A DNA stretch of 64,000 nt from an uncultured bacterium (GCA_964372275.1 CAYJRR010000006.1:1-64000), one strand, 5' to 3'. Positions 8,233 through 30,523 are shown, numbered from the stretch's first letter. Notes: generated by a model from the sequence alone, not told the origin. Made by a program: numbers and translations.

Positions 8233-8925
8233 ATGTTCGCCCGTTCGGGCTTCACCGGGGATCGCTCCGCGCTCGCGCGCTCGTCGGGGGAGTCCCCCGC
8301 ACCCCCTGCCGGACCCCTGCCGTTCCTTCGTCGGGGTCTGCTACTCCTGCTCGTCGCCGTCGGATGGGCCTTCTTGCCGGCCGGGGCCAGCGCGGAGACG
8401 ATGTACGAGAACGACCCTCAGCGGGAGCTGAAGGAGTCGATCGAAGACCTCTACGGCGTTTACATCCTCAACCCCTCGCGCCGGCAGGCGCGCGAGAAGG
8501 TGGAGATCGATCCAACCGGCAAGAAGGCGACGCTCTGGCTCTACTACGATCCCCGCAAGCCCGACTTCGAGAAGATCAAGTGCGAGGCGCTGCGCTGGAT
8601 CCTGGTCGGCCGCTTCGGCAAGGGGGGAGCGCAGCCGTTCTTCCAGCAGCACAAGAAGTTCGAAACGGTCGAACTGGTCCTGTTCGAGCTGAAGTCGAAC
8701 CGGACGGTCGACAAGGACGGCAAGTACACCGTCACCAAGACGCCGTCCCCGATCGCGAAGCTCCGCCTCGATCGGAAGAAGTCCGAGAAGCACGACTGGG
8801 CGGCGGTGAAGAAGAAGATGGACATCGGACAGGCGCCGGACGCCGACGCGATCTCCGCCTGCGTCAAGAACGGGGAGTCGCTCGTCAGCGGAAAGCCCCT
8901 GTACAACAAGGACTACTTCAAGTGA
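8233..8925 (+). CDS. Exported Lys-rich hypothetical protein
   Basis: Hydrophobic signal-like segment ending AGASA; strong GC3 coding bias; overlaps the next gene (GTGA). Confidence 0.7.
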   Translation: MFARSGFTGDRSALARSSGESPAPPAGPLPFLRRGLLLLLVAVGWAFLPAGASAETMYENDPQRELKESIEDLYGVYILNPSRRQAREKVEIDPTGKKATLWLYYDPRKPDFEKIKCEALRWILVGRFGKGGAQPFFQQHKKFETVELVLFELKSNRTVDKDGKYTVTKTPSPIAKLRLDRKKSEKHDWAAVKKKMDIGQAPDADAISACVKNGESLVSGKPLYNKDYFK

Positions 8926-10439
8926 TCCGCCTCCGCGGTCGATCGGCCTGCGCGGTCGTGCTCCTGCCCCTCGCCGTCCTGCTGACGGCATCCGGCGCGC
9001 TGGCGCAGTCGGCCGAGTTCGTCGCCACGGTCATGGTCGGGCGGGCAAACGTCCACCGCGGCCCGAGTCGCGGTTCGCCGCAGATCCAGACGGTGACCAA
9101 GGGGACGAAACTGCCGGCGGCCGGGCTCTCCCCGGACAAGAAGTGGGTGCGGGTCAAGGCGCCGAACGGGAAGGTCGGCTGGATCTCGCGCGACGAAGTG
9201 GCGGTCGAGAAGAACAAGGGCGCGGCGGGGGGCGGCGCGACCGGAGGGGGCGCGGCGTCCGGCGGCGGCAGCGTCGGAGGCGGATCCGGGAAGAAGGAGG
9301 GCTCGTCCGGATCGGGATCGGAGGCGAGCGGCAAGAAGAAAAAGAAGAAGAGCGGATCGAAGAAAGGATCGGGGGGATCCTCCGCGTCCAAGTCTTCGGG
9401 CACGGGAAAGAGGACGGGGGGGACCGGAGGCCGGAAGGGCGCCTCGCCGGTCGCCAAGAAGTACGCGACGGTCACCGCGCCCCGCACCGAGCTTCACCTG
9501 AACCCCTCCACCTCCGCGCCGACGCTCGAGCTCGCGATGCGCGGCGATGTCCTCGAAGTGGGCGGCATCTCCCGCGACAAGCGGTGGGTCCGGGTCCGGA
9601 CCGAGGAGGGAACGGTCGGCTGGATCGTGAAGCAGGATCTGAAACCGGGGCGGAAGAAGGCGCTCGCCACCGATTCGGGCGGCGATCGTCCCCGCAGCGG
9701 CGGGATGACGACCCGAAAGAAGAAGAAGCGTTCCTACGCGACCGAGATCCTCGCGGAGTTCGGCCAGGTCGGGATCCAGGAGAAGATGACCTCCAACGAG
9801 GGGCTCGGCTACAAGCTCGACGCCGCCGGCAACGGCGGCGGCATCCGGTTCGAGCGGCGCCTGTTCGGCGGGTTGTGGGTCGAAGGCGGTTACTTCGGAA
9901 CCGCCAACCAACGCATCCCGCTCCAGGACGAGAAGGAGACGACGCTCTTCTCGACGCTCCATCGAGGCGATGCCTCGCTGCGCTACACGTTCGTGCTGGG
10001 CAACCCGGACGCGAACGTCGGTCTGACGGCGTCCGCCGGGTACCACGGCTACTTCTTCATCGTGCAACCCCAGACCGTGAGCCTCTTCTACAGCACCGCC
10101 TACCACGGCGGCACGTTCGGCGGCGGCGGGGAGGTCAACTTCGGCAAGGTCCGGGCCTACGGCGAGTACCGCACCTTCACCCCGCTGACCGTCGAGCAGA
10201 GCTTCGGCGAAGGCGGCGAGGGGGGCTACGGTCAGAACAACACCGCCACCGGGCACTACGTCGGCGCCGGGGTCCGTTACCGCTTCTTCAGCGGGAGCTC
10301 GCTCGGGCTGATCTACCGGGCCCACTACTACGAGACGACGTACACCGGCCAAGGGAAGCGCGGCGAGGACGACCTGACCGGCGTCGACGTCGACACCGGT
10401 TTCGAAGCGATCTCGCTCGTCTTCTCCCGCGGGTTCTAG
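8922..10439 (+). CDS. Tandem SH3b-domain protein with C-terminal outer-membrane beta-barrel
   Basis: Signal peptide (ALA); two repeats ANVHRGP...KWVRVKAPNGKVGWI / TELHLNP...RWVRVRTEEGTVGWI; G/S/K linker; amphipathic strands ending in terminal Phe. Confidence 0.75.
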   Translation: MIRLRGRSACAVVLLPLAVLLTASGALAQSAEFVATVMVGRANVHRGPSRGSPQIQTVTKGTKLPAAGLSPDKKWVRVKAPNGKVGWISRDEVAVEKNKGAAGGGATGGGAASGGGSVGGGSGKKEGSSGSGSEASGKKKKKKSGSKKGSGGSSASKSSGTGKRTGGTGGRKGASPVAKKYATVTAPRTELHLNPSTSAPTLELAMRGDVLEVGGISRDKRWVRVRTEEGTVGWIVKQDLKPGRKKALATDSGGDRPRSGGMTTRKKKKRSYATEILAEFGQVGIQEKMTSNEGLGYKLDAAGNGGGIRFERRLFGGLWVEGGYFGTANQRIPLQDEKETTLFSTLHRGDASLRYTFVLGNPDANVGLTASAGYHGYFFIVQPQTVSLFYSTAYHGGTFGGGGEVNFGKVRAYGEYRTFTPLTVEQSFGEGGEGGYGQNNTATGHYVGAGVRYRFFSGSSLGLIYRAHYYETTYTGQGKRGEDDLTGVDVDTGFEAISLVFSRGF

Positions 10440-11980
10440 AAGCGGTAGGTCACGCCGCCCAGCACGCCGATCTCGCGGCTGGCTTCCGAGGGGATGTACT
10501 TCCCCTCGACGTTGTCGAGGATCTCCACATCGTCGTTGGTGAGGTCGCGCCGCTGGTTGTAGAAGTCGGCCTGCAGGTAGTAGGTCCACCCCTTTCGGGC
10601 GACGTAGCGCACCTGTCCGGTCGCGGAGATGACCGACGCGCTCTTGACCGATCCGCTCCCGAGGAACTCGTCGGTGGTGTCGTATTCGGACTGGGCGAGA
10701 TCGCCGCCGCCGCCCACCGACACGTTCTCCGCCACTTCGCGCTCCACGTAGAGGCCGACGATGTTCGAGGTTGCGCCGAAACTCTGGCGGCGCTGGACCC
10801 TCAGCCGGGCGACGATCCCGGTGTCGTAGGGATCGTAGGTGTAGGCGCCGACCCCCGCGATGATCGCCGACTTGCCGTCGATCTCCCGCTGCCGGAAGGC
10901 GAGCGACACGAAGGGGGTGACGCTGTTTTCGGTGACGTAGTGGCCGATCAGCTTGCCCTGATTGATCGGTGACACCCGGACCTCTCGCGAGAGGACCTCC
11001 GGCGCCGTGTACGTGCGCTCGGCGAGCTCGACCTCGGTCCGGTAGTTCGACTCGGTGATGGTGCCGGGAATCGTCCCGTCGTCGAAGACGAACGGCTTCG
11101 TCCCGTGGTCGGTCGAGACGGCGAAATCGACGGGCCGATAGCGGGTCAATGCGAGGCGGATCCGGTACCGGCCCGAGGGCTTGTAGGTGAGGTTGACGAG
11201 CACGAAGCGATCCTCCGGGCCCGGCACGAGATCGAACTGCAGCAGATTGGTCAGCGTCAGCTTGGTCGAGAGCAGCAGGAAGCTCTGGTTGAACAGGCTG
11301 ATCCGGTCCGGCTCGAGCCCGAAGAGCTGGGCCGTCGCGCCCACACGAACGGCGCGGCTTTTCGAATCGTTGTAGGAGTAGTAGCCGCCGGCCGCCTGGT
11401 AGTCGGGCGAGACCATGCGGGTGATCGGGTGCGGGGCCAATCCGCCGAAGAGCCCGATCCGGGTCGCCGAGGAGAAGGTCTTTTCGTAGGTGACCCCGTC
11501 GACCGTCGCCAGCCCCGCCTCGTAGAAGGTCTTGCGGCCGATCGACACCGCCGAGTCGCCGGGTTCGAGCGACCCCAGCATCAGAAAGGCGTCGTTGATC
11601 CCGACCAGTTGCGAGAGCTGGCCGAAGGTCGCGGTGCGGATCGCGACCTTCTCGCAATCGGGATTCGCCTCGACCGAACCGCGGCAGTGTTCGGTGAACG
11701 GACCCGCCACCTCGTCGTTGTCGGCGTTTTCGTGCTTCTGGTCGGTCGAATTGAGCAACGGGACATCGCTGCGCGCATCGACGTGCAGCGACATGTTGCG
11801 TCCACCGATCTGTTCGGACACGAGCCAAAGCCGGAGGAGCGCCACGTCGAAGGTGGCGGTCGGGCCTTCCATCATGGTGTAGGCGTTGGAGACGGTGACC
11901 CGCCCGCGCGTCTCGGCGAGCGCCCGTGGACACGCGAAGACGATCCCGATCGCAACCGCGATGTGTGTCGACCGTTTCAT
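10436..11980 (-). CDS. Outer-membrane beta-barrel (porin-like), candidate porin of a porin-cytochrome complex
   Basis: Start ATG 11980 overlaps the cytochrome stop (ATGA); signal MKRSTHIAVAIGIVFACPRALA; alternating amphipathic strands; C-terminal GGVTYRF beta-signal. Confidence 0.78.
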   Translation of the reverse strand: MKRSTHIAVAIGIVFACPRALAETRGRVTVSNAYTMMEGPTATFDVALLRLWLVSEQIGGRNMSLHVDARSDVPLLNSTDQKHENADNDEVAGPFTEHCRGSVEANPDCEKVAIRTATFGQLSQLVGINDAFLMLGSLEPGDSAVSIGRKTFYEAGLATVDGVTYEKTFSSATRIGLFGGLAPHPITRMVSPDYQAAGGYYSYNDSKSRAVRVGATAQLFGLEPDRISLFNQSFLLLSTKLTLTNLLQFDLVPGPEDRFVLVNLTYKPSGRYRIRLALTRYRPVDFAVSTDHGTKPFVFDDGTIPGTITESNYRTEVELAERTYTAPEVLSREVRVSPINQGKLIGHYVTENSVTPFVSLAFRQREIDGKSAIIAGVGAYTYDPYDTGIVARLRVQRRQSFGATSNIVGLYVEREVAENVSVGGGGDLAQSEYDTTDEFLGSGSVKSASVISATGQVRYVARKGWTYYLQADFYNQRRDLTNDDVEILDNVEGKYIPSEASREIGVLGGVTYRF

Positions 11981-14226
11981 CCGCTCGAATGCTGATCCCA
12001 GCGCGTGGGCACGTGACAGGTTCCGCAGTCGATGCTCCGGATCAGGCGATGCGTTCCGGCCGGACTCTGCTGCAAGTCGTCGGCGTGGCAGAAGATGCAG
12101 TCGTCCGGCGTGCCGCTGTAGAGGTTCCCCTTGTGGCACTCGATGCAGGAGACGAGTCGGTGGGAGCCGATCAGCGGATAGCCGGTGGTGATGTGATTGA
12201 AGATCGCCGGTAGCCAGGTCGTCTGGCTGTGGCAATCGTGGCACTCGTGCCCGCGGCCTCCGAGGTGCGGGTCGGCGTGGCAGACGTTGCACTCGCCGCC
12301 GAAGCCGTTCATCAGCCAGCGCGGTTGCGGGGTGTGGCAGGTCTCGCAGGTGAGCGACTCGTGCGCACCCGCGAGGACCACCTCGCCGTAGTTGTGCAGC
12401 GTCTGGAAGATGAGCGTGTTCCGCTCCACCGCCCAGCGGCGCTCGTTGTGGCAGTTGCTGCAGTCGTTGCCGACCCCCCACGCCCCGCGGTGGTAGTCCC
12501 AGTGGCACTCGATGCAGGTCTGCGGGGTCCCCTTGAACCCCATGTCGAGATGGCAGTGGTAGCAGTCGACCTGTCCGTGCTTCCCCGCCAGCTTGAAGTC
12601 GCTCTGCTCGTTGTGGTTGAAGACCTCGTCCTCCCACGCCGCCGTCTTGTGGCAGTTGTCGCAGGCGTTCGGCAGCTTCCCGAGGTGCGGGGAGCCGTGG
12701 CACGAACCGCAGGTGGTGTCGTGCTTCCACTTGCCGGGGACCTTGTGGCACTGCTCGCAGCGGACGGTCGTGTGCTTTCCGGTGAGCGGGAAGCGCGTGT
12801 CGTCGTGGTTGAAGGTGGACCGGTCCCACCCCGCGGTGGTGTGGCAGTTGCTGGAGTCGCAGGTCTTGCCCCGCGTTCCCTTGTGGGCGTCGACGTGGCA
12901 GTAGCCGCAGTCCTTCCGCTGCGGGATCTCGATCAGGTCACGGTGGCAGCGGAAGCACTCGAGCTGAAGGTGTCGGCCCGTCAGGTCGAAGGTCGACCAG
13001 GTGCGGTGATCCTTGTTCTCGACCGTCAGCGGCACCCACCGGTTCTGGTCGTGGCACTTGAGGCACGGCTTCCCCTTCACCCAGCGGTCCTGGTGGATGT
13101 TGTTGTGGCAGGCCAGGCAGTCGCCGTCGGCGCCGGTGGTGGGGGACATCTTCAGTCCCTTGTGGCAGACGGCGCAGGCCAGCTTGGCGTGGGCGCCGAC
13201 GGCGTCGTACTTGGCGAACACCTTGTGCTCGGCGGTGGTGACCTTCTCCTTCTTCCAGGACGCCTCGGAGTGGCAGGTGATGCACGGCTTGGTGGTGAAC
13301 GCCTTTTCGTGCGGGCTGTCTTTCGTGTGGCAGCTCTCGCACGTTTCGAAGGCGAGAGGACCGAACGGCTTCCCCTTCGGGTGGCACTGCGCGCACTGGA
13401 CCTTCTGGTGGGCGAGGCGCAGCGGGAAGCGCGTCGTGTCGTGATCGAAGCCCTGCAGGTTGAACGTCTTGTTCCAGTTGAAGAAGGTGTGGCACAGCAG
13501 GCACTCCTCGAACGCGTTCCCCGGCTTGAACTTGTGGTAGTTGTCGTGACAGGAGAGGCACTCCTGGTCGGTTCCCAGGAAGGTGCGGCGGGTCGACTTG
13601 GGGCGTTTCGCCGCCGGCTTGTGGCACTTGTCGCAATCGATCTTGTGCCCGCCGATCAGCTTGTAGCCGGTCAGGTCGTGGTCGAAGTTTTTCTGCGATC
13701 CGTCGGCGCGGTTCATCGCCACGCCCCATGCGTTCGCCTTGGTCGTGACGCCGGCGATCTTCGCCTTGGGGTGGAGGCCGTCGATCATGTCGAAATCGAG
13801 TCCGGCGTGGTCGTAGTGGCAGGCCCCGCAGTCCTTGGAAAGGAACGCGGGCGATCCGTGCAGACCGGTCTTCTCCTTCTGGTTCTTTCCGATGTCGGGC
13901 CCGTGGCAGTCGGCGGAAGCGCACAGCGACGCCGGCGTGCTGGTCTTCCCCTTTCCGCCGGGATGGCACTTTTCGCAGTTGGCGGTGGTGTCGAAGCTGG
14001 CGTGCGACTTGGCGAGGTCGCCCGGCGAGATCGTCCTGCCCGGAAGGCCGAAGAGGACCGGCCCCGCCGCTCGGACCGCCGCCACGGCCGGCGCCGCGGC
14101 CACGACCGGGGCCTCGTGCGCGACGGCCCGATGCGAACCCAGCGCCAGGAAGGCTCCTGTGACGCCGAATACGGCGAGCAGACCGAAGGCCGTGTAGCTC
14201 CGGCGCCGAAGGGGCCGATCGAGCAT
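11977..14226 (-). CDS. 27-heme multiheme cytochrome c (nine triheme repeats)
   Basis: 25 CxxCH plus 2 CX4CH (CASADCH, CDSSNCH) counted by eye; repeated FxH-x4-5-F/YxLxGxH motif; N-terminal signal/TM segment. Confidence 0.95.
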   Translation of the reverse strand: MLDRPLRRRSYTAFGLLAVFGVTGAFLALGSHRAVAHEAPVVAAAPAVAAVRAAGPVLFGLPGRTISPGDLAKSHASFDTTANCEKCHPGGKGKTSTPASLCASADCHGPDIGKNQKEKTGLHGSPAFLSKDCGACHYDHAGLDFDMIDGLHPKAKIAGVTTKANAWGVAMNRADGSQKNFDHDLTGYKLIGGHKIDCDKCHKPAAKRPKSTRRTFLGTDQECLSCHDNYHKFKPGNAFEECLLCHTFFNWNKTFNLQGFDHDTTRFPLRLAHQKVQCAQCHPKGKPFGPLAFETCESCHTKDSPHEKAFTTKPCITCHSEASWKKEKVTTAEHKVFAKYDAVGAHAKLACAVCHKGLKMSPTTGADGDCLACHNNIHQDRWVKGKPCLKCHDQNRWVPLTVENKDHRTWSTFDLTGRHLQLECFRCHRDLIEIPQRKDCGYCHVDAHKGTRGKTCDSSNCHTTAGWDRSTFNHDDTRFPLTGKHTTVRCEQCHKVPGKWKHDTTCGSCHGSPHLGKLPNACDNCHKTAAWEDEVFNHNEQSDFKLAGKHGQVDCYHCHLDMGFKGTPQTCIECHWDYHRGAWGVGNDCSNCHNERRWAVERNTLIFQTLHNYGEVVLAGAHESLTCETCHTPQPRWLMNGFGGECNVCHADPHLGGRGHECHDCHSQTTWLPAIFNHITTGYPLIGSHRLVSCIECHKGNLYSGTPDDCIFCHADDLQQSPAGTHRLIRSIDCGTCHVPTRWDQHSSG

Positions 14227-14343
14227 CGGTGTCCTTGAGGATCCGGCAATTTGCTATGTCAGGTCAAGGAGATAGAAGACTTCGGCCGGCGCGGTGCGCG
14301 AGGCCTCGCGCGGGCGAACCGGGCCCGACCCGCATCCGGTGCG

Positions 14344-16527
14344 TCAGATCCAGCGTTCGCCGATCCAGCCGCTGAACTTCAAGCCGATGTAGATGTGCCA
14401 GGCGAGGACGCTGAACATGATCGTCGCGGCGACGATGTGGATCGCCAGCCAGACGCGGGCGATCTTCTGGCTCTTCTCGTAGAGCAGGATCCGTTGCTCG
14501 AGTCCCGCCTTGCGCTTGATCGTGTCGACGATCCCTTTGATCTCGGACGGCTTCTTCCCGAGCTTCTTCAGCCGGCGCGACAGTCCGGCGAGTCGGGCGT
14601 TTCGCCTGAAGTCGAGGGCGATCATCGTGAAGACGGTGCCGATCAGACCGCGCTGTCTCGCCTCTTCGGGCATCCCCCAGTCGAGGAACGGTTTCGACCT
14701 ATCCGAATCGCCGAGCAGCCCCTTTAGTTGCTGCTCGATCTGGAACGCCTCGGCCTTGGCGTCCTCCAGGCGCATCTCCTGGCCGGCGATGGTGCGCGGC
14801 ATCTGCCCGTAGAAGTAACGGCCGACGATCCCGGTGGCCACCACCAGCGCGCAGGAATAGAGGACGTACTTGAAGATGTTGGCGTCGAACCCGATCTCGA
14901 AGGTGGTGTGATAGGTGGCGAAGACGAAGCCCAACAGCCCCATGAAGACGTGGACGTCGAGGAACGCGGAGAGCGATCCGAACCGTCGGAAGATCCGGTC
15001 GAGCCGTTTCCGGGGGACGTAGATCAGCGTGCCGCTCAGGAGGAGCGATCCGATCCACCCCTCCCAGCGCCCGAGCCCCGTCTTCGCCTCGATGAAGATG
15101 ATCTCCTCGGTGTAGCCGAGCGCGCGCGCGATCTTGAACGAGAGCGACCAGTCGACGTGGTGGAGCCGCGACCAGTGCTCCCATCCCAGGATCGCGGCGC
15201 TGACCAGCGAGACGCTCCACAGCATGGCCTGCAGCCAGCTGCGATCGCCGGGTTTCACCTCGTTGTACACCGGGCGGAAGGTGGCGGCGACGTCGGCCGC
15301 CTCTTCGCCAGTCACGCCGTAGAGGTCGACGCGCTCGAACAGCTCCCGCTGCGAAAGGTCGAAGATGGCGGCGGTCGGGCAGGGGGTGACGCAGGCCATG
15401 TCCTCGTAGCCGAAGCAGTGGTCGCACTTGATTGCCATCTGCTTCTTCTTGTCCGATTTCGGCGCGTCGTCCTCATCCTTTCCCTTCTTTTTCCCTTTCT
15501 TCGGCTCGCCGTCGCCGTCGACCTCTTCGGCCCCGACTTCCGCCTTCTTGGTGCCGTCCTCCCGCTCCACCATCTTGATGACCCCGTAGGGGCAGTCGTT
15601 GGCGCAGTTGGTGCAGCCGGTGCAGGTGTCCTTGATCACCACTTCGCGAAAGTTCTCGTCGAAGTAGATGTGGTCGCCGGGGCAGTGCGCGGTGCAGTGC
15701 GTGTACTCGCAGGTCCGGCAGGCGTCGGGGAACATCAGCAGCCCGAACTTGTTCTTCGACTTCCAGATCCGGGCCTGTCCCCACCGCTTCTCGCAGCCCT
15801 GATAGCAGGCATCGCAGTCGATGCACTTGTCGAGCCGGATGACGCGGACGCGCTCTGAGTAGCTGTAGCCGTTCCGAACCAGGTAGTTCCAGATGCGGCC
15901 GATCTGCCCGTCGAATCGCTCCGCCCGCTTGTCCATGCGCAGCGAGACGGCCTTGAGACGCTTGCGTACGCCGGCCGAAACCTTGGCGATCTTGTTCAGC
16001 GTCTCCGCCGGGATGGTGATCACCTGGCTCGGCATCACCGCCGAGACCTGCACCGCCGGGATCCCCGCCCAGTTGAACTGACGGTCGAAGAAGAACTCCC
16101 CCTTCTTCAGGATGTTCACCACCCGGGTGCGGCCGGGCCCCTCCTCCCCCAGCACCATCAGCTGCCCTTCGACGACCAGATACATGTTCTCGAAGTGCGC
16201 CCGCTTCGAGATCTCCCGGATCACGTCCTTCGGCTCGTGCCGCTTGAACTTGAGCTCCTTCTCCAGGAAGAAGAGCGCCGTCTCGGGGAGGGTCTGCAGG
16301 AGCGGCACGCGCTGGATGGCGTCGATCAGCTCGATCTGTTTCTCGAGCGCGTCGACCTCCTCGGCGCTGTCGGCCGCGACGATCTGCTGGTAGATCCCGG
16401 TCTTGTCGAAGTCCCGGATGGTCGACGTAGGCTGGACGCCGGCCTCCGGGTCGTCCGAGACCTTCGGGGGGCGCCGTCGCTCGGCGGGGCTCGGGGACCG
16501 AACGGGGATTTTGGGGTCGGTCGCCAT
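14344..16527 (-). CDS. Fusion of cyclic-nucleotide-binding-like domain, 4x[4Fe-4S] ferredoxin (DmsB/NrfC type) and ferric-reductase-like transmembrane domain
   Basis: MYLVVEGQL...LKKGEFF cNMP fold; CIDCDACYQGC, CRTCEYTHCTAHC, CTGCTNCANDCP, CDHC-x7-CVTPCP; TM helices with LDVHVFMG, TYHT, LAIHIV, AWHIY His residues. Confidence 0.85.
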   Translation of the reverse strand: MATDPKIPVRSPSPAERRRPPKVSDDPEAGVQPTSTIRDFDKTGIYQQIVAADSAEEVDALEKQIELIDAIQRVPLLQTLPETALFFLEKELKFKRHEPKDVIREISKRAHFENMYLVVEGQLMVLGEEGPGRTRVVNILKKGEFFFDRQFNWAGIPAVQVSAVMPSQVITIPAETLNKIAKVSAGVRKRLKAVSLRMDKRAERFDGQIGRIWNYLVRNGYSYSERVRVIRLDKCIDCDACYQGCEKRWGQARIWKSKNKFGLLMFPDACRTCEYTHCTAHCPGDHIYFDENFREVVIKDTCTGCTNCANDCPYGVIKMVEREDGTKKAEVGAEEVDGDGEPKKGKKKGKDEDDAPKSDKKKQMAIKCDHCFGYEDMACVTPCPTAAIFDLSQRELFERVDLYGVTGEEAADVAATFRPVYNEVKPGDRSWLQAMLWSVSLVSAAILGWEHWSRLHHVDWSLSFKIARALGYTEEIIFIEAKTGLGRWEGWIGSLLLSGTLIYVPRKRLDRIFRRFGSLSAFLDVHVFMGLLGFVFATYHTTFEIGFDANIFKYVLYSCALVVATGIVGRYFYGQMPRTIAGQEMRLEDAKAEAFQIEQQLKGLLGDSDRSKPFLDWGMPEEARQRGLIGTVFTMIALDFRRNARLAGLSRRLKKLGKKPSEIKGIVDTIKRKAGLEQRILLYEKSQKIARVWLAIHIVAATIMFSVLAWHIYIGLKFSGWIGERWI

Positions 16528-16589: not shown

Positions 16590-17081
16590 GTGGGTCTGTT
16601 CCGAAGACGAAAGGCGGGTTCGGACGGCGGCGTCACGGTGCGTTCCGCCGACACGCGGGACCTCAACGCGATCGTGGAGCTGCTGGCGGAGCTGGTGAAG
16701 GGGCAGGTGCCGCGGCGCCGCCGCGCGGCCTACCTGGGATCGATCCGCGAGGAGCAGCGGGCGATGCTCCTCGATCCGTCCGCGGCGTGGTTCGTCGCCG
16801 CGGGGGCCGATCGGATCGTGGGCTGCGCGAGGGCGCAGATCCGCGAGGACCATCCGCAGCTCGCCTACCTGCCGAAGAACCGTTGGGGCTACGTCTACGG
16901 CGTCTTTGTCCACGCGCAGTCGCGCCGGACCGGCGTCGGGCGCCGGCTGCTCGGCGCGTGCGAGTCGTGGCTACGGGAGCGGGGCGCGGCCTTCGTCTTC
17001 CTCCACTCGACCCCCGACGGGATCGAGTTCTACGAATCGCTCGGCTATCTCCCGAGCCTGGAGTTCTCGAAGAAGCTCTGA
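16590..17081 (+). CDS. GNAT family N-acetyltransferase
   Basis: VFVHAQSRRTGVGRRLL acetyl-CoA motif and FYESLGY. Confidence 0.88.
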   Translation: MGLFRRRKAGSDGGVTVRSADTRDLNAIVELLAELVKGQVPRRRRAAYLGSIREEQRAMLLDPSAAWFVAAGADRIVGCARAQIREDHPQLAYLPKNRWGYVYGVFVHAQSRRTGVGRRLLGACESWLRERGAAFVFLHSTPDGIEFYESLGYLPSLEFSKKL

Positions 17082-17083
17082 CG

Positions 17084-18178
17084 CTACTCGCAGGTCATCT
17101 CGGTCACGACGCCGGCGGCGTCGAAGTCGTAGACGCAGGACTCGACGGGTCCGTCGGCGTCGTAGCGGGTCCATTGGCCGTAGCCGGAGCCGAACGGGGC
17201 GTAGTGGATCTGGCCGTCGATGTCGGGCGCGAACCCGGTCTGCACCTCGTCGAACCGGTAGACGGAGTCGGTCTCGCCGAGGACCGAGAACTCGTAGTCG
17301 ACGTGGAGCGTGCTCCCGTCCTCGTAGGACTGGTCGTAGACGCCATCGCCGGAGTAGTCGGCCGCGAAATGGTAGGACCCCAGTCCGTCCGGCTCCACCT
17401 CCGTGCCCGGGTCCTCGTAGACCAGCGTGCTGTCGTAGCCGCCTTCGCTGTTCAGCGCCACCTCGTAGACCTGGTAGATGCCGTGGTCGAAGTACCAGCG
17501 CAGCTGGCCACCGCCGGAGAAGTCCTTCTCGATCACGAACTCGGCCGCCCGGTCGGGCACGACCTCGGTTGCGAAGTCGTCGCGGGTCCACGCCTGCTCC
17601 AGCGCGATGTCCGACGACTCGCCGTAGTAGGTCGTCACGATCTCCTCGAGGTAGACGCTCGACAGCTTTCGTTCCTCCTCGATGCGAAGGTGGTCGATCA
17701 GCGGCGTGATCTCGCCGGCGACCCGCGTTCCGCGGTCCCGGTCCGTCGCCTCCAGCCGGACCCTGCCGTCCTCGACCCAGAAGACCGTCTCGTACCCTTC
17801 GGCGGTGTCGTCGGCGTAGCTCCGCCAGTCGACGAAGTCGGCGGCATAGACGTCCCCCGCCCCGTTGAAGCTCACGTACCCCTGCGCCTCGATCGATTCC
17901 AGGTATTCGCCCGTCGGGAACTCCTGGTAGGTCGAGAACGCGCCGGTGTCGCGGTCGACCGTTCCGCTCCAGACGGAACCGTCCTCGCGGGTCTCCTCGA
18001 ACTCGCCGTCCTTGCCGCTCAGGTCGAAGAAAATCAGGGCCCGCCCGGAGACCGTCTCCTCCAGCGCGGAGATCTGCGGCGCGGGATCGACCATCCGGCC
18101 GTTGACGTCGAGAAGGTCATCGCCGCAGCCCCCGGCCGACAGGAGCAGGCCGCCGGCGACGACCCGGATTCGGCTCAT
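17084..18178 (-). CDS. Acidic lipoprotein of unknown function (sigma54 target)
   Basis: Start reassigned to ATG 18178: MSRIRVVAGGLLLSAGGC lipobox-like; D/E/Y-rich. Confidence 0.72.
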   Translation of the reverse strand: MSRIRVVAGGLLLSAGGCGDDLLDVNGRMVDPAPQISALEETVSGRALIFFDLSGKDGEFEETREDGSVWSGTVDRDTGAFSTYQEFPTGEYLESIEAQGYVSFNGAGDVYAADFVDWRSYADDTAEGYETVFWVEDGRVRLEATDRDRGTRVAGEITPLIDHLRIEEERKLSSVYLEEIVTTYYGESSDIALEQAWTRDDFATEVVPDRAAEFVIEKDFSGGGQLRWYFDHGIYQVYEVALNSEGGYDSTLVYEDPGTEVEPDGLGSYHFAADYSGDGVYDQSYEDGSTLHVDYEFSVLGETDSVYRFDEVQTGFAPDIDGQIHYAPFGSGYGQWTRYDADGPVESCVYDFDAAGVVTEMTCE

Positions 18179-18191
18179 GTGAAAGGATCGA

Positions 18192-18206
18192 GCAACGGTC
18201 GTGCCA
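18192..18206 (-). promoter_or_regulatory. Sigma54 (-24/-12) promoter of the 17084-18178 lipoprotein
   Basis: Minus strand TGGCAC-GACCG-TTGC, exact consensus, 13 nt before ATG. Confidence 0.85.
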
Positions 18207-18263
18207 CGGACCGGCGCGGAAACCGCCCCGATGTCGGGCGGTTGCGCGCTCTCGCGGGCGGGT

Positions 18264-18282
18264 GGGTGGCGCAAATCAGCCA
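18264..18282. promoter_or_regulatory. Putative enhancer (UAS) for the adjacent sigma54 activator
   Basis: TGGC-GCAAATCA-GCCA dyad about 60 bp upstream of the -24 box; GGGTGGCGCAAAT repeated exactly at 24396-24408. Confidence 0.6.
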
Positions 18283-19649
18283 ATCTTGTACTTCTCAATT
18301 CGGTAACGAAGAGTCGCACGGGTCAGCCCCAACAGCCGCGCGGCGCGCGTCTGGTTGTAGCGGGTCCGATCGAGCGACTGGATCACCAGGTCCTTCTCCA
18401 GCTCGTCGAGGCTGATCCCTTCCTCGGGGAGGATGAACTTCCGCGTGCCGTCGGCGGCGCGCGGTCCCGGCGCGTCGGTCTCGTGCAGCTCGCCGGGGAG
18501 GGAGTCGGCGCCGATCGTGTCGCCGTCGGTCAGGATCAGCGCCCGTTCGATCACGTTTTCGAGCTCGCGGATGTTCCCGTTCCAGCGGTAGCGGAGCAGG
18601 AGAGCTTGCGCGTCGCGGCCGATCTGGGTGACCGGTTTGCCCATCTCGCGGGCGTACTTCTTCATGAAGTGGCGCGCGAGCAGGAGAATGTCGGTCCCGC
18701 GTTCGCGGAGCGGCGGCAGGCGAACCGGGAAGACGTTCACCCGGTAGAAGAGATCCTCGCGGAACGATCCATCCTTCACCGCCTTCGCCAGGTCGCGGTT
18801 GGTCGCGCACAGGAAACGCACGTCGGCTTTGATCGGCTCGCGGCCGCCGACGCGCTGGAACTCCCGCTCCTGCAGGAGCCGCAGGATCTTGGCCTGCAGC
18901 GGCGCCGGCATGTCGCCGATCTCGTCGAGGAACAACGTGCCGCCGTTCGCCGCCTCCACTCGCCCCTCCCGGCGCCGGTCGGCGCCGGTGAAAGCGCCTT
19001 TCTCATGTCCGAACAGTTCGCTTTCGAGGAGGTTTTCGGGGATGGCGGCGCAGTTGATCGGTACGAACGGACCGCGGGCGCGCGGACTGTTGAAGTGGAT
19101 CGCGCGCGCCACGAGCTCCTTGCCGGTTCCGCTCTCGCCGAGGATCAGCGCGGTGGTGTCGGTCTTCGCCACCTCGCCGACCATCTTCAGCGCCTTCATC
19201 ATTTCTGGCGCTTCGCCGATCAGCTGGTGGAAGTCGTAGCGACCCTCGAGCTCCCGGCGCAGCGCCCGGTTCTCGGCGAGCACGCCGGCGAAGGTGAGCC
19301 CTTTGCGGACGGTGAGGAGAAGCGTCTCTTCCTCCACCGGCTTGGTCACGTAGTCGAAGGCGCCGGCGCGCATCGCGGAGACCGCGCTTTCGATCGAGCC
19401 GAAGGCGGTCGCGACCACCACCGGCACGTCGGTCATCTCCTCGCGGATCGCCTTGAGCAGCCCCATCCCGTCCATCCCCGGCATGGCGAGGTCGGTGAGG
19501 ACCAGGTCGGGCCGCCGGCTTCGTGCCAGCGCCAGCGCCTCCTCGCCGCCGCCCGCGGTCGCGATCTCCGCGTCGAGATCGGCGAGCAGCATCGAGAAGA
19601 CCTCGCGGAAGCGGGGCTCGTCGTCGACGATCAGCAGGTGGGGGCGCAT
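18276..19649 (-). CDS. Sigma54-dependent response regulator (NtrC/AtoC family)
   Basis: Receiver IVDDE...[23 protein letters not shown]; Fis [13 protein letters not shown]. Confidence 0.95.
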
Positions 19650-19662
19650 GACAGACGAAAGT

Positions 19663-21180
19663 CTACAACGATCCCGAGTCGGACTCGGCGATCGGAAGGA
19701 GCACCGAGAAGGTGGTGCCGCGGCCGACCTCGGTATCCAGGAGCAATTCCCCCCCGTGCGCCCGGACGATCTGGTCGATCACCGCCAGCCCCAGACCCGA
19801 TCCGCGCTTCTTCGTCGTGAAGAACGGCTCGAAGAGGTGCGCGCGCACGTCGGGCGGGATGCCGGGACCGTCGTCTCGGACATCGAGCGCCAGCCTTCGA
19901 GCCGCGCGACGCACCCGGACCTCGATGCGGCCGGGCCGCGGCGGCACCTCGCCGCCGATCGCCTGCGAGGCGTTGTAGAGAAGGTTCAGAAGCAGCTGGT
20001 GGAGCTGGTCGGGGTCGGCGGCGGCCCGGGGCAGGGCGGGCTCCACCGCGAGCTCCGCCACGATCGCCGGGCGCCCCGATCCCGCCGCCGCGTCGCCGGC
20101 CGCGCCGTCCGCCGGGGTCGCGGCTGCCGCTGCGGCTCCCGCCGTCGTCTCCGGCGACGCGCGCCAGGCGTCGACGGCATGGCGCGCCACCTCTCCCAGG
20201 TCGGTCGGACGGATCTCGGGAGGTTTCGGGCGCGCGAAGTTGAGGAAATCGGTGACGTCGGCGTTGAGCCGGCGGACCTCTTCGACGATGAACTGCGCCG
20301 CCCGCTCCTTCATCTCCGGCGTACGCTTGGGGTTCGAAATCACCTGCGCGGAGGAGAGGATCACGCCGAGCGGATTGCGCAGCTCGTGGGCAATCACCGC
20401 GGTGAACTGTCCGAGCGTCGCCAGGCGCTCCTTGCGGCCCAGCTCGGCGTAGGTCTCGGCGAGCTTTCCGCGCGAGGCGCGAAGGGCATCGATCATCCGG
20501 TTGAACGAGCGTGCCAGCTCGGCGATCTCGTCGCCTCCGCCCTCCGGCACCTTCGTCTCCAGGTCTCCGGCCGCCACGGCGGCGGTGGCCCGGCCGAACG
20601 CCCGGAGCGGCCGCACGATGCGATCGGCGAGCCACATCGCCACCGCGGCGCCGAGCGCGGCGGCGGCCGCCGCCGCCCACCAGATCCGGCGCTGCACGTG
20701 CTCGAGCTCCCCTTCCAGCCGCCCGCGGCCGTACACCAGCCGCACGCGGCCGATCTCCCGTGGCGCCGCCGGCTCGACCGACGAGAGGAACGGCGCGAAG
20801 TCGTCGCTCACGGCGCGCTCCGTCGCCGCGTCGTAGACGACCGGCACGACGACCTCGCCGCCCAGGGCCTCGCGCGCGCCCACCGCCAGGACCGTCGCCC
20901 CTCGCGCGTTCACGATCTCGACCTTGCGCACGTCGGGCTCGGCCATCAGGTGCTCGGCCAGCTCCCGCAGCACCTCCCCGCTCTCGATGAAGACGCCGTG
21001 CGCCGCGTTGCGCGCGAGGTTGGCGGCGAGCGAGCCCATCGTCGACTCGAACTGCTCGGTCATCTCCCGCCGCGCCACCGCCGAGAAGATCGCCGCCCCC
21101 GCGACCGAGACCGCCGTGACCATCAAGGTCGCGGCCAGCGCCATCTGGAAGCGGAGGCTTCCGGCGGGAAGTCTCCTCAC
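19663..21180 (-). CDS. Membrane sensor histidine kinase with HAMP domain
   Basis: GTG 21180 overlaps the upstream stop; two TMs; IAHELRNPL H-box; NLLYNA, DDGPG, GSGLGL boxes. Confidence 0.93.
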   Translation of the reverse strand: MRRLPAGSLRFQMALAATLMVTAVSVAGAAIFSAVARREMTEQFESTMGSLAANLARNAAHGVFIESGEVLRELAEHLMAEPDVRKVEIVNARGATVLAVGAREALGGEVVVPVVYDAATERAVSDDFAPFLSSVEPAAPREIGRVRLVYGRGRLEGELEHVQRRIWWAAAAAAALGAAVAMWLADRIVRPLRAFGRATAAVAAGDLETKVPEGGGDEIAELARSFNRMIDALRASRGKLAETYAELGRKERLATLGQFTAVIAHELRNPLGVILSSAQVISNPKRTPEMKERAAQFIVEEVRRLNADVTDFLNFARPKPPEIRPTDLGEVARHAVDAWRASPETTAGAAAAAATPADGAAGDAAAGSGRPAIVAELAVEPALPRAAADPDQLHQLLLNLLYNASQAIGGEVPPRPGRIEVRVRRAARRLALDVRDDGPGIPPDVRAHLFEPFFTTKKRGSGLGLAVIDQIVRAHGGELLLDTEVGRGTTFSVLLPIAESDSGSL

Positions 21181-22157
21181 CGGATCTCCTGCACCTGGTC
21201 GGGGTCGTAGTCGGTGCGGATGCGGAGCTTCTGCGCCACGCGGTGGTTGACCCAGACCGTGACCTTCGCTGGAGGCTCGACGAACCCGAGACGCTCGACC
21301 TCCAGTCTGCGCGCGGCCTCCGCCGCCTGCCGTCCGGTCTGCGCGTAGTCGACTCCGAATGCCATCACCGCACCGTTGTCGACGAAGTACCAGTTGAAGC
21401 CGATCGCCGGGATCGCCGCCGCGAGCGACTCCTTGAGCAGGTAACCGATCGTTCCCTTGGTGATCACGGTGGCGTCCGGGACGAACAGCAGGGCCTGGAT
21501 CCGCGGCTTGGCCTTGCGGAAGGCCGACGGGACCTCCCCTTCGCCGCCGACCGGGATCGGAACGATCTTCAATCCCCGTTTCCGGCCCGGAAACTTCGCG
21601 GCGGCTGCGGCGACCAGGTCGTCGATCGCCGCCTGACCGGTGCGCGGGTCGAAGACCACGCCGACGCGCTCCACGTCGGGCAGCACCTCGGCGATCCACC
21701 GCAGTTGGACGCTTGCCGGGACGGCGGAGGCGAGCGTCACCACCGGCGCCGGCGCCGACTCGGGGCCCGAGTCGGGGGCGAGGGCCACCACGCGCGCGAC
21801 GTCGGGAAAGTGGTCCTTGGCGAATCGCGCCGCCTCCGATCCGATCGTCACCAGCACGCCCGGCTGCGCCCGGCGAACCGCCTCGATCGTCGACGGATCC
21901 GGCCGGGTCGTGATCGTCGCTTCGAGCGCAGGCGCGCGCCGTTCGCGGAAGCCGCGGGCCGCCTCTTCGTACGGTCCGATGGCGCCGGTCGCCGACGCGC
22001 TCTTGAGCAGGACGACGCGCTCTTCGGCGCGGACCGGTCCGGCGGACAGGAGCGCGGCGGTAGCGGTCAGGACGGCCGCGGCGATCCGGAGGGGTCCGGG
22101 GAGGCCCCCGGGAGAGCCCGAACGGGCGGACCGATGATTCGGCCGGCGGGCGCTCAA
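21177..22157 (-). CDS. Periplasmic ABC-type substrate-binding-like protein (orphan, no permease)
   Basis: Signal ending PVRA; LPDVERVGVVFDP and GAVMAFGVDYAQTGRQAA resemble the ABC_sub_bind family; start inferred (TTG overlapping the upstream TGA). Confidence 0.7.
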   Translation of the reverse strand: MSARRPNHRSARSGSPGGLPGPLRIAAAVLTATAALLSAGPVRAEERVVLLKSASATGAIGPYEEAARGFRERRAPALEATITTRPDPSTIEAVRRAQPGVLVTIGSEAARFAKDHFPDVARVVALAPDSGPESAPAPVVTLASAVPASVQLRWIAEVLPDVERVGVVFDPRTGQAAIDDLVAAAAAKFPGRKRGLKIVPIPVGGEGEVPSAFRKAKPRIQALLFVPDATVITKGTIGYLLKESLAAAIPAIGFNWYFVDNGAVMAFGVDYAQTGRQAAEAARRLEVERLGFVEPPAKVTVWVNHRVAQKLRIRTDYDPDQVQEIR

Positions 22158-25145: not shown

Positions 25146-27041
25146 CTACTCGCGCTTGCTCAGCACGGCGCGCACCGTGCGGGTCTGCCCGTCACGGACG
25201 AAGCCGACCTCGACTTCGTCTCCCGGCTTGAACTTGCGGAGCGCGAAGGTGAGGTCGTGGAGGTTGGCGACCGTCACGTCGCCGAACTTCACGATCCGAT
25301 CGCCGCCGGCCAGTCCCGCCTTCTCGGCCGGGCTGCCGGCGCGGACGCCGGTGATCGGCACGCCGGGCAGCTCGCTTTCGGTGAAATCGGGGACCGATCC
25401 GAAGTAGGCGCCGTAGCCGCCGGTCGATCCGGTCTGTCCGAAGGCGTGCGGGATCGAGGTGGAGGGGACGAACGTCGGCCGACCGTCGCGGTTGGCGAGG
25501 GCGATGGCCACCCGTTTCACCAGGCGCGCCACGGAGGCCAGACCGTCGGCGTCGATCCGATCGGCGTCGTCGGTGGTCCGGTGGTAGTCGGCGTGCGCGC
25601 CGGTGAAAAAGTGGAGGACCGGGATCCCTTTTCCGTAGAACGCCGTCTGATCGGAGGGTCCGTAGCCGTCCCCCCGCGCCGTGATCTCGAGCGTCTCGGT
25701 GTTGGCCGTCCGCAGGATCTCGGAGAACTCGGCGGCGGTGTCGGCGCCGAATGCGACCAGCTTCCGGTCGCGCATCCTCCCGACCATGTCCATGTTCAGC
25801 ATGGCGGCGATCCTCTCCAGCGGCCAGGTCGGGTGCCCGACGTACCAGGAGCTTCCTCCCAGGCCCGCCTCCTCCGCCGAGAAGGCGATGAAGACGATCG
25901 ACCTCCGCGTCGGGACGCCGGAAGACGCGATGGCGCGCGCGATGGCGAGAAGGGCGGAGGTGCCGGACGCGTTGTCGTCGGCCCCGTTGTGCGGCGTTCC
26001 GGCACGATTGGGGTCGAGAGAGTCGCGACCGCCCATCCCGATGTGGTCGTAGTGCGCGCCGATCACGATCGCCTCGTGTTGGAGCGACGCGTCCCGTCCG
26101 GCAAGCACACCGACGACGTTCCGCGTCGAGAGTCGCCGCTTGGCCAGGTCGACGGTGATGCCGATCGATCCGGGGAGGAGCTTCGACGACGGCCTCCCCC
26201 CCTCCGCGAGCACGCGCTCGGCCGCGAGAAGCCCGTCCGCACCGCCGAACAGCGCCGCCGCCGGCTCGCGGCGCAGGTGCACCGCCGGGATGCCGGCGAA
26301 GGAGACGCCGCCATCGGGGTCGAGCGCGAGGAGCAGGTCCTCGTCCCCCTCGTGCGGCAGCGCGTCGTTCACCAGCACCATCCCGACCGCGCCGTGGACT
26401 CGGGCGTTGATCGCCTTCACCCGCAGCTCCGCGTAGCGCGTCAGGTCGGCGCCGCCGAAGACGCTCTTCGGATCCTTCTCCCCGGGTTCGTGGCGGAGGA
26501 CGACGGCGATCTTCCCGGTGACGTCGACGCCGGCGTAGTCGTCCCAGCCGAGCTCCGGCGCCGTGATCCCGTACCCGACGAAGACGGCGGGGGCGTGCAC
26601 CGATCCGCTGTCGGAGAATTCGAGCGGTCGCCAGTCGCGGTCGATCGCCAGCACCGACGCCTTCCCCTCGAACGCGCTCCGTTTCGGGTCGGACACGTTC
26701 CGTGCCGCGCCGACCAGCGCCAGCGCATTCCGGCTGCCGAGCTGCACGCCGACCGTCATGTCGAACGGTTGGAACCAGGATCCGTCCGGTCCTCCGGGGG
26801 CCAGACCGGCGCGCCGCATCTCGTCGGCGACGTACTCCCCCGACGCATCGAGGCCGCGCGTGCCGAGACCGCGCCCTTCCATCAGATCCGACGCGAGGAT
26901 CCGGACGTGGTGCGCCACCTGGTCGGCGGAGATCCCCTCCGGCGACGCCGGCCGCGCCGGCCCGGCCGGCGGTCGGCAGCCCGGCGCGAGCGTGAGCGAC
27001 AGCGCGGCAGCGACGGCGATCCCGGGTCGGAGCGTCGCCAT
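25146..27041 (-). CDS. M28 family aminopeptidase lipoprotein with PA and PDZ domains
   Basis: Lipobox-like [42 protein letters not shown]-terminal [12 protein letters not shown]. Confidence 0.93.
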
Positions 27042-30418: not shown

Positions 30419-30523
30419 GGCGGGGATGCTACCGGTTCGGCCGCGGCCGCTACAAGCGCGCGCTCGCGCGGTATCATGGCGCGGGAGGCTTGGGAGTCCC
30501 CGACAAGCCCGGAAGGCGAAACG

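Follow-up and report, generated by a model that had tools for sequence, protein, structure and literature searches.

In a 64,000-nucleotide stretch of DNA from an uncultured bacterium (GCA_964372275.1, CAYJRR010000006.1:1-64000; here called the window), three genes located head to tail on the minus strand at 10436-16527 probably encode a minimal electron conduit across the cell envelope that belongs to the PCC3 family. The genes follow each other in the order P0001, P0002, P0004 and encode an inner-membrane protein with an iron-sulfur (Fe-S) domain, a long multiheme cytochrome and a beta-barrel. The kind of system is already known from genome analyses; new are the single-chain fusion of a cyclic nucleotide-binding (CNB) domain, a ferredoxin domain and a membrane domain, the missing extracellular cytochrome, a barrel that is smaller than the PCC3 porin and has no recognisable relation to it, the strictly kept number of 27 hemes and the host lineages. 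A published description of the trio was not found in the literature searched on porin-cytochrome systems, PCC3, PCC4 and Bdellovibrionota. The features of the locus, all on the minus strand, are:

14344-16527, minus strand: P0001, 727 amino acids (aa), ATG start; predicted inner-membrane input module with a CNB fold, a four-cluster ferredoxin domain and a diheme-b-type domain of five transmembrane (TM) helices in one chain
15883-16356, minus strand: CNB-fold domain of P0001 (residues ~58-215), a structural match in which the canonical phosphate-binding residues are missing
15352-15852, minus strand: HycB-like ferredoxin domain of P0001 (residues ~226-392), whose four [4Fe-4S] motifs comprise 16 invariant Cys
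14347-15240, minus strand: PCC3-type inner-membrane domain of P0001 (residues ~430-727), recognised by five TM helices, motifs and homology
14227-14343, minus strand: spacer of 117 nucleotides between P0001 and P0002
11977-14226, minus strand: P0002, 749 aa, exported 27-heme cytochrome c of nine c7-type triheme units
11977-11980, minus strand: ATGA overlap between the stop of the cytochrome gene and the start of the barrel gene
10436-11980, minus strand: P0004, outer-membrane beta-barrel of 514 aa with 22 modelled strands

The window has a GC content of about 70%, and a third-position GC of 0.84-0.98 tracks the frames of all three genes across the region. The initial annotation of this DNA had claimed three co-oriented genes with these domains, 27 hemes, a 514-aa barrel and an ATGA overlap, and its coordinates proved exact. 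The junction of the cytochrome and barrel genes reads GGATGAAAC, the TGA stop of P0002 overlapping the ATG of P0004, and overlapping or abutting junctions of the two genes were found in distant loci too. Within 10436-16527 there is just one open reading frame (ORF) with heme motifs.

Conservation of the trio

Two distant genomes in which the barrel had a weak match pointed to a low-GC phylum with 17 species genomes, labelled Bdellovibrionota, Bdellovibrionales or Deltaproteobacteria in public records, and 13 of the 17 carry the barrel. We examined 14 barrel-bearing loci from two lineages other than that of the window. In 13 of them, the gene directly upstream of the barrel encodes a cytochrome with 23 or more heme motifs; the fourteenth locus starts at a contig end. 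The number of motifs is exactly 27 in 11 of these 13 cytochromes, the other two having 24 and 23; in trios whose cytochrome gene is intact, all 27 motifs align. Ten of the 14 loci also carry the gene for the P0001-like fusion, upstream and in the same orientation; three of the remaining four have only 0-1.7 kb of upstream DNA, and in the fourth, from a different phylum (G048), the fusion is found on another contig (4.2e-155). In addition, a GC-rich metagenome contig from the clade of the window contains the full trio, with a barrel 43% identical to P0004 and 26+1 heme motifs. The three genes thus occur together elsewhere, in the same order, in 10 of 14 distant loci and on this contig, and since the three genes keep their order in unrelated genomes, their association is more than chance.

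Beyond the three genes, the lineages have no conserved neighbour in common. The distant trio loci likewise lack an extracellular cytochrome, although three of them (L004, L025 and L042) contain a 6-heme ORF. In L004 and L025 this is a small c7-type cytochrome encoded between the fusion and the 27-heme gene. Type IV pilin-like genes with an N_methyl motif are located inside or right after the trio at L004:5754-6506 (minus strand) and L037:14222-14866 (plus strand). At L029/L052 (G073:C3) the fusion is split over three frames and the adjacent cytochrome has 24 motifs, which is either decay or an assembly error in a metagenome-assembled genome (MAG) that is 58% complete.

Throughout the low-GC lineage (L004, L037-L044), genes for an ABC ATPase, an ABC-2 permease, a GldG-like protein (ABC_transp_aux) and a DUF4340 protein are conserved upstream of the fusion in divergent orientation. 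The window lacks them, and we take them as lineage synteny and not as part of the system. Chloroflexota-labelled MAGs (L053-L057 and L060) encode soluble proteins in which the same four-motif ferredoxin domain comes after one CNB domain or two. These proteins were considered as split forms of the fusion and rejected: no multiheme ORF was flagged within about 6 kb of them, and the motif scan of the same loci flagged no ORF with two aromatic-x3-H-x13-H motifs. Two records of this Chloroflexota type of CNB and Fe-S protein carry the label 'Klebsiella'.

The 27-heme cytochrome

P0002 carries a signal peptide and has 25 CXXCH and two CX4CH motifs, giving 27 heme motifs. Their spacing divides the protein into nine triheme units, with about 26 residues per heme in the mature protein, and the Pfam family Cytochrome_C7 matches it over seven stretches (4.9e-31). 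In an alignment of 11 cytochrome sequences with 35-38% identity, all 27 motifs are aligned and invariant, and the two CX4CH motifs of P0002 are CXXCH in the other aligned homologues. A further 25 His are invariant in this alignment, enough for mostly bis-His ligation of the hemes. When the cytochrome profile was compared with the PDB at E<=1e-3, the only matches were 3ov0_A (GSU1996, 1.8e-7, 289 residues) and 1z1n, a 16-heme cytochrome; a match to an MtrA-type decaheme cytochrome was not found in the PDB at this threshold.

GSU1996 (12 hemes, 3ov0), GSU0592 and GSU2210 (27 hemes) are c7 polymers of Geobacter sulfurreducens that are discussed as periplasmic capacitors (PMC10138318). Like the GSU1996 family, P0002 consists of tandem triheme c7-type units that would form a linear heme wire, and GSU2210 also has 27 hemes. 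The ligation seems to differ: the units of GSU1996 contain one His-Met heme each, whereas mostly bis-His hemes are suggested for P0002.

The inner-membrane protein

P0001 has eight homologues with 60-65% identity and distant ones with 26-29%. A scan of species genomes with the alignment of the close fusions found just two stretches of Clostridium ferredoxins. Among the Pfam matches are several 4Fe-4S dicluster families including Fer4_11 (PF13247; 36.9 bits, cut-off 26.2), and cNMP_binding barely exceeds its cut-off (27.6 against 27.5 bits). NCBIfam gave nothing above any cut-off for P0001, P0002 or P0004.

The ferredoxin domain contains four Cys motifs (residues 235-245, 270-282, 302-312 and 368-383) with a Lys/Glu-rich insert between the third and the fourth. 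All 16 Cys (235, 238, 241, 245, 270, 273, 278, 282, 302, 305, 308, 312, 368, 371, 379 and 383) are invariant in an alignment of 12 homologues in which the two main lineages share 26-29% identity. The best match of the P0001-family profile in the PDB was HycB3 (7qv7_A, 2.5e-16), followed by HycB (7z0s_B) and ArrB (6cz7_B), all of them four-cluster subunits.

According to hydropathy, five hydrophobic helices make up the membrane domain. TM3 contains FLDVH-x13-H, TM4 contains TGIVG and TM5 contains WLAIH-x13-H; the His residues at 526 and 540 (helix 3) and at 697 and 711 (helix 5), as well as T565-G566-x-x-G569, are invariant in the homologues. The two invariant pairs of His are predicted, from their spacing, to hold two b hemes across the inner membrane, in line with what had been proposed for this protein. 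A Pfam match to Ferric_reduct was not found in P0001 at E<=0.1; a distant homologue has a sub-threshold match to DUF4405 (23.2 bits, cut-off 26.7). Neither a signal peptide nor a Tat peptide was found in P0001, and counts of Lys and Arg give an N-in topology with 6 and 23 positive charges in the cytoplasmic loops. Since these positively charged loops lie on the same side as the Fe-S domain, the latter faces the cytoplasm according to the positive-inside rule, as the initial annotation had it.

The N-terminal domain has a CNB fold: a model of it (range 55-203, compared with VIA-align) matches 2k0g with Z 14.1 (root-mean-square deviation (rmsd) 3.0, 133 aligned residues) and 5bv6 with Z 13.7. 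In PKG, the residues G-E...R-T-A hold the cyclic phosphate, and a G-E...R-(T/S)-A cassette is found in functional CNB domains of the PKA/PKG/CRP type. Aligned to PKG I, P0001 has F-D at the position of G-E and P-A-V at the position of R-T-A. It had been suggested that a ligand-sensing domain may gate the electron flux. The fold is real but the canonical residues that contact the cyclic nucleotide are missing, so that gating by a ligand is unsupported; most likely, the domain serves docking or regulation and binds neither cAMP nor cGMP. The full-length model of P0001 had a mean predicted local distance difference test (pLDDT) score of 60, and a fold search with it returned essentially CNB domains only.

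The barrel and its modelled complex with the cytochrome

P0004 has a signal peptide that ends in ALA, followed by E, and the C-terminal residues YRF; no Pfam or NCBIfam family was found for it. The protein is rare, with only three relatives (41-43% identity) in an index of 5.8 billion sequences. An exhaustive search with the barrel profile gave 8 representatives at E<=1e-30 and 110 matches at E<=1e-3. Pfam, run on 28 of these 110, revealed no family above cut-off; sub-threshold matches in the 28 were to Porin_4, OMP_b-brl and BBP2_2, together with SPOR domains. The profile found no relatives among the PDB sequences at E<=1, and a scan of species genomes with the barrel gave 27 pattern matches, with no relative among them. 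In the Protein Atlas, the clusters nearest to P0004 are unnamed and are commonest in Myxococcota and Acidobacteriota.

The AlphaFold2 model of P0004 shows 22 long strands (mean pLDDT 76.8, predicted template modelling score 0.69), and since the modelled barrel already begins at residue 23, there is no plug domain. Two long loops, 80-124 (with the invariant Cys99 and Cys109) and 292-331, are of low confidence and, judged by strand parity, would face outward. The closest solved folds are the 22-strand barrels of TonB-dependent transporters, taken without their plugs (FyuA with Z 18.8, rmsd 5.2 and 358 aligned residues; BtuB with Z 17.8). MtrB reaches Z 16.2 (rmsd 5.2, 355 aligned residues), which is below unrelated 22-strand barrels, and a Foldseek search of the PDB returned generic barrels only (TM-score at most 0.44). 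MtrB has 26 strands, compared with the 22 modelled for P0004, and MtrB_PioB was not among the Pfam hits at E<=0.1. A narrow or plugged barrel, or one of a characterised family, would have spoken against the initial annotation; neither is indicated, the model having 22 strands and no plug domain and the searches giving no family match.

For the co-fold, residues 23-514 of the barrel (the scored partner) were combined with an N-terminal (58-258) and a C-terminal (534-749) fragment of the cytochrome. The score was 0.66 in three runs, and the best of three controls had 0.00. A mark of 0.66 was reached by 116 out of 157 complexes of solved structure and by 2 out of 215 mismatched pairs; these counts hold only roughly here, since three chains and our own alignments were used. 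The runs had at least 51% of contacts in common, and the pLDDT of the partner was at least 70. Confident contacts were formed by cytochrome residues 602-705 with alternate residues of nearly all barrel strands, a pattern that places this part of the cytochrome in the lumen of the model. When the C-terminal fragment was replaced, the score fell to 0.00. The N-terminal fragment 58-258 made no confident contact with the barrel in the co-fold, which is not evidence against such a contact. Insertion of the cytochrome into the porin had been proposed before, and the co-fold supports it for the C-terminal part, although as a model it is not proof. In solved conduits, the C-terminal end of MtrA points outward from MtrB. 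The arrangement modelled here resembles MtrCAB, MtoAB and PioAB (6r2q), with a multiheme cytochrome in a barrel and its C-terminal end facing outward.

Instead of taking part in a surface conduit, the cytochrome might be a periplasmic electron store or capacitor, or might feed a reductase, and the barrel might be an ordinary porin encoded in the same operon. Such a role is what is discussed for the Geobacter proteins GSU1996 and GSU2210 (PMC10138318), the former of which is matched by the P0002 profile at 1.8e-7. However, in all 13 loci that could be assessed the barrel gene adjoins that of the cytochrome, the two overlapping or abutting, the co-fold puts the cytochrome in the lumen with all controls at zero, and the barrel has neither a plug nor a signature of a porin family. 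We consider this explanation very improbable.

Relation to PCC3

By definition, a PCC3 cluster encodes a porin and two kinds of cytochrome, one extracellular and one periplasmic, together with a conserved membrane protein (He et al. 2017, PMC5566968). The signature of the PCC3 and PCC4 membrane proteins is a length of about 300 aa, five TM helices, SGXXG on TM4 and WX3HX13H on TM3 and TM5, and the authors draw a connection to the ferric reductase domain with its two b hemes (PMC5566968). The periplasmic cytochrome of PCC3 has 21, 24 or 27 hemes and may span the periplasm (Hoover et al. 2023, PMC10734462). Our cytochrome profile was run on 41 genomes sampled from the family to which a Sideroxydans-labelled MAG belongs, and 19 of them had matches at E<=1e-30. 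Six of these loci (L108-L113) were examined, and all show the published PCC3 layout. In all six, a 24- or 27-heme cytochrome matches the cytochrome profile at about 1e-130, and the cytochrome of L080 matches it at 1.1e-137. In five of six, the PCC3 membrane protein of about 300 aa, which has two Wx3Hx13H motifs, matches positions ~402-649 of the fusion profile, the TM part, with 1e-22 to 1e-31; L108 has at its place a gap of 1 kb with no ORF listed. The PCC3 loci also encode one or two further cytochromes with 10-37 hemes and, in six of six, a protein of 709-764 aa ending in (R/S)(W)DF. The barrel profile found none of the six PCC3 porins at E<=0.01, and hhalign comparison of the barrel profile with PCC3-like porins gave probabilities of 5.4% and 14%.

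By sequence comparison, P0002 and the membrane domain of P0001 are therefore clear homologues of the PCC3 cytochrome and inner-membrane protein. The order of membrane protein, long periplasmic cytochrome and porin genes is the same, and the membrane domain has the five TM helices, the two His motifs and (S/T)GxxG of the PCC3 protein, from which it departs by being fused, by T in place of S and by F in place of W on TM3. In contrast to PCC3, the trio contains no extracellular cytochrome gene, its membrane protein is fused to a CNB and a 4x[4Fe-4S] module, and its 514-aa barrel has no detectable sequence relation to the porin of 709-764 aa. The hosts also differ, being GC-rich myxobacteria-like and Bdellovibrionota-labelled MAGs and not Proteobacteria. 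The supplementary text of He et al. 2017, in a copy that is possibly incomplete, contains no occurrence of Bdellovibrio, Myxococc, Haliangi, Deltaproteobacteria or pfam13247.

A further difference is an Fe-S flavoprotein gene that adjoins the PCC3 loci. Beside the gene for the PCC3 membrane protein, on the opposite strand, all six loci have a gene for a protein of about 435 aa (for instance L109:4590-5891, minus strand) with a 2x[4Fe-4S] domain followed by an FAD/NAD(P) pyridine-nucleotide-disulfide oxidoreductase domain (Pyr_redox_3); Pfam recognised it in three of the six, and all six match one another. Homologues are present in three Haliangiales loci (L050:6356-8602, L082:4367-5755 and L083:9769-11952), in one case directly upstream of a fusion of Fe-S and membrane domains. 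The flavoprotein was not found in the low-GC trio loci, and the window has no flavoprotein gene in or beside the trio. In the parts of the PCC3 literature consulted we did not see this flavoprotein mentioned; possibly, it is the cytoplasmic partner of the PCC3 membrane protein.

The Haliangiales-labelled MAG G078 (8.5 Mb) contains four paralogous long-cytochrome systems with 23-29 hemes (L050/L068, L081, L082 and L083), whose inner-membrane modules are fused in some and stand-alone in others. One system consists of a fusion of Fe-S and membrane domains, a 29-heme cytochrome and then a barrel related to P0004 (2.5e-19). A second has a stand-alone membrane protein, cytochromes with 23 and 10 hemes and a barrel that weakly matches the P0004 profile (4.8e-4), and in another, a stand-alone membrane protein is followed by a 27-heme cytochrome. 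This MAG thus bridges the fused and the stand-alone forms. The family is repeatedly paired with a cytoplasmic Fe-S input module, though not always the same one, which fits an exchange of electrons with the cytoplasm as in NOX and ferric reductases.

Comparison with other redox systems

Fe-S modules next to membrane domains of this type have been described before. In subgroup II of PCC4, an Fe-S gene (pfam13247) precedes the membrane protein gene or is annotated as fused to it (PMC5566968), and in the ptdABCDEFG cluster, which includes a porin, the CNB-domain 4Fe-4S protein PtdE adjoins the ferric-reductase-like PtdF (bioRxiv 10.1101/2023.11.21.568154). The trio shares with them an Fe-S module (PF13247) next to such a membrane domain and, with ptd, the CNB domain, a likeness seen at the level of domain content. 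PCC4 and ptd have three short periplasmic cytochromes (4, 5 and 10 hemes) and an FAD/NAD(P) oxidoreductase, whereas the trio has a single 27-heme cytochrome and no flavoprotein gene; PtdE is described with two clusters, whereas P0001 has four Cys motifs. The initial annotation had seen in the trio a distinct architecture that it did not recognise as a characterised system. The architecture is not wholly distinct, since the cytochrome and the membrane domain are homologous to those of PCC3 and the Fe-S/CNB module has its parallels in PCC4 subgroup II and ptd.

In NOX and FRE proteins, two b hemes are held by His pairs of two helices, and electrons cross the membrane from a cytoplasmic redox module. 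Of the features of the ferric reductase domain superfamily, P0001 has the two invariant His pairs, 13 residues apart, on two TM helices, but no Pfam match to Ferric_reduct; unlike NOX and FRE, it has no FAD/NADPH domain in the same chain. Hmc, Tmc and Dsr are transmembrane redox complexes of sulfate reducers, and Hmc and Tmc combine an Fe-S protein in the cytoplasm, a cytochrome b in the membrane and a multiheme cytochrome in the periplasm, with no outer-membrane part. Known outer-membrane conduits are fed via the quinone pool and diffusible periplasmic carriers. The Mtr system, for example, receives its electrons from periplasmic carriers and quinol oxidases, whereas the trio is predicted to be fed by its own transmembrane Fe-S/heme-b module.

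It might also be that the membrane domain is a quinone-reactive cytochrome b, so that the conduit would link the quinone pool with the surface and the Fe-S/CNB part would be an auxiliary or regulating side branch and not the main route of the electrons. This is what was first proposed for the membrane proteins of PCC3 and PCC4, which He et al. 2017 liken to cytochrome b as found in the bc1 complex and in [NiFe] hydrogenase (PMC5566968), and stand-alone membrane proteins without an Fe-S fusion serve homologous cytochromes. On the other hand, the 16 Cys are invariant over very large distances, and a cytoplasmic Fe-S module is fused or adjacent in every lineage examined (the fusion, PCC4 subgroup II, ptd and six of six PCC3 clusters), which together argues for an electron-carrying role of the Fe-S part; a quinone site was not recognisable by the methods used. 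A quinone-reactive membrane domain seems to us distinctly unlikely.

Proposed mechanism and direction of electron flow

The pathway we propose for the trio would run as follows. P0001, in the inner membrane, would take electrons from a cytoplasmic donor with its four-cluster ferredoxin domain and would pass them to two b hemes in its ferric-reductase-like five-helix domain, one held by His526/His697 on the cytoplasmic side and the other by His540/His711 on the periplasmic side. The 27-heme cytochrome, with its nine c7-type units and mostly bis-His hemes, would be a single rigid wire across the periplasm, and its C-terminal part (~residues 600-705) would be sheathed by the 22-strand barrel. Sheathed in this way, the last hemes would reach the cell surface, as those of MtrA do in MtrB, and electrons would leave via these C-terminal hemes to an external acceptor, for example Fe(III), Mn(IV) or humics. 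Observed are the domain content, the motifs and invariant ligands, the topology by charge, the conservation of the gene order and heme number and the homology to two PCC3 parts; the fold of the barrel and the position of the cytochrome in it are modelled, and the binding of the cofactors, the passage of electrons, the bypass of the quinone pool and the direction of flow are what we infer.

Provided that the trio is a conduit, the somewhat more probable direction is outward, a discharge of cytoplasmic reducing power like that of NOX and ferric reductases. Outward flow is favoured on general grounds, since it would go with the membrane potential, since the chain starts at ferredoxin-type clusters and since enzymes with a ferric reductase domain generally work in this way. 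Such a path would not conserve energy by itself and would suit the disposal of reducing equivalents.

The same apparatus could run inward. Electrons donated outside the cell by Fe(II), by a mineral or cathode, or by a partner cell would then pass through the barrel-sheathed cytochrome, the b hemes and the Fe-S clusters to acceptors in the cytoplasm. The closest homologues, those of PCC3, are frequent in iron oxidisers, as in the 19 of 41 genomes mentioned above from the family of the Sideroxydans-labelled MAG (E<=1e-30). The authors who described PCC3 propose electron uptake (PMC5566968), and the gene for the membrane protein of PCC3 copy 2 was significantly upregulated in iron-oxidising cells of Sideroxydans CL21 (PMC12442390). 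However, it is general bioenergetics that electrons entering through the TM heme pair would move against the inside-negative membrane potential and that ending on [4Fe-4S] clusters is usually uphill from Fe(II). In addition, most hemes appear to be bis-His, given the 25 further invariant His, and hemes of this kind typically have a low potential. Overall, inward flow appears rather unlikely to us.

We also consider a more far-reaching version of the outward conduit. According to this, the trio would be a hard-wired path independent of quinones, with 33 cofactors (4 Fe-S clusters, 2 b hemes and 27 c hemes) in three polypeptides, and the invariant number of 27 hemes would serve as a molecular ruler, matched to how wide the periplasm is. 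PCC3 as a whole would then be the bacterial, envelope-spanning counterpart of NOX and ferric reductases, with interchangeable Fe-S input modules: the fused CNB-ferredoxin in the trio, and the separate Fe-S flavoprotein in the iron oxidisers and Haliangiales. We regard this proposal as possible rather than probable.

Several points weigh against the reading of the trio as an outward conduit. The hosts of PCC3 are mostly iron oxidisers, for which inward flow to the quinone pool is proposed (PMC5566968), and PCC3 was functionally unverified as of 2025 (PMC12442390); PCC3, PCC4, ptd and the trio are all predicted systems. The trio is not always linked: in L042 the fusion has neither a large cytochrome nor a barrel within 5.8 kb, a 6-heme ORF following it instead, and in L046 the cytochrome gene precedes the fusion and no barrel was found. 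In L049, too, the 27-heme gene is located before the fusion. No gene for a cytoplasmic donor is conserved beside the trio, and a close homologue of the flavoprotein linked to PCC3 is missing from the genome of the window (G000; best match 4.7e-9). This genome contains 9 ORFs with at least three CXXCH motifs and is, with so few multiheme ORFs, not that of a typical cytochrome-rich metal respirer. On the structural side, the Fe-S region of the P0001 model has a pLDDT below 50, too low to judge how the domains pack, and both long loops of the barrel, which are of low confidence, could occlude the lumen. The co-fold was calculated without hemes, and since MtrAB exists as a solved analogue, part of its score could come from likeness to it.

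If the trio does work as proposed, a wire of three proteins starting at cytoplasmic Fe-S clusters would be the simplest complete pathway known from the cytoplasm to the cell surface and an attractive part for the engineering of electroactive cells. It would also offer a handle on the actual role of the PCC3-type clusters, which are widespread in iron oxidisers. Predicted genes for the exchange of electrons with the outside are now placed in Bdellovibrionota-labelled and myxobacteria-like bacteria that are uncultured. That 27 hemes are so strictly conserved provides a testable link between the length of the cytochrome and the geometry of the envelope.

Genomic surroundings

G000 has a size of 4.6 Mb in 225 contigs, is 94.6% complete and carries one copy of the trio; no close relative was found among the genomes compared. 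The genes flanking the trio are:

8922-10439, plus strand: gene for an SH3-domain protein, convergent with the trio
16590-17081, plus strand: gene for a GNAT acetyltransferase, divergent from the trio

Since both flanking genes are unrelated to it, the trio forms its own unit. The promoter scan of the region gave no promoter-like sites, and no good match to the sigma-54 consensus was found upstream of P0001. Terminator-like sites were not found on the minus strand between 10000 and 17200, the overall terminator scan being at the level of shuffles.

Outside the trio, a perfect match to the sigma-54 promoter consensus TGGCAC-N5-TTGCW (0 mismatches) is located at 18191-18206 on the minus strand. 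It lies at the 5' end of an ORF without a Pfam family (17084-18319, minus strand), the true start of which is probably downstream of the site, and just downstream of a gene for a sigma-54 response regulator (18276-19649); a histidine-kinase gene is present at 19663-22329. Further along, an ORF of 1649 aa (27041-31990, minus strand) encodes PD40 (WD40-like beta-propeller) repeats and a C-terminal domain of the Omp85 superfamily, and is adjoined by the gene for an M28 peptidase with PA and PDZ domains (25146-28178, minus strand).

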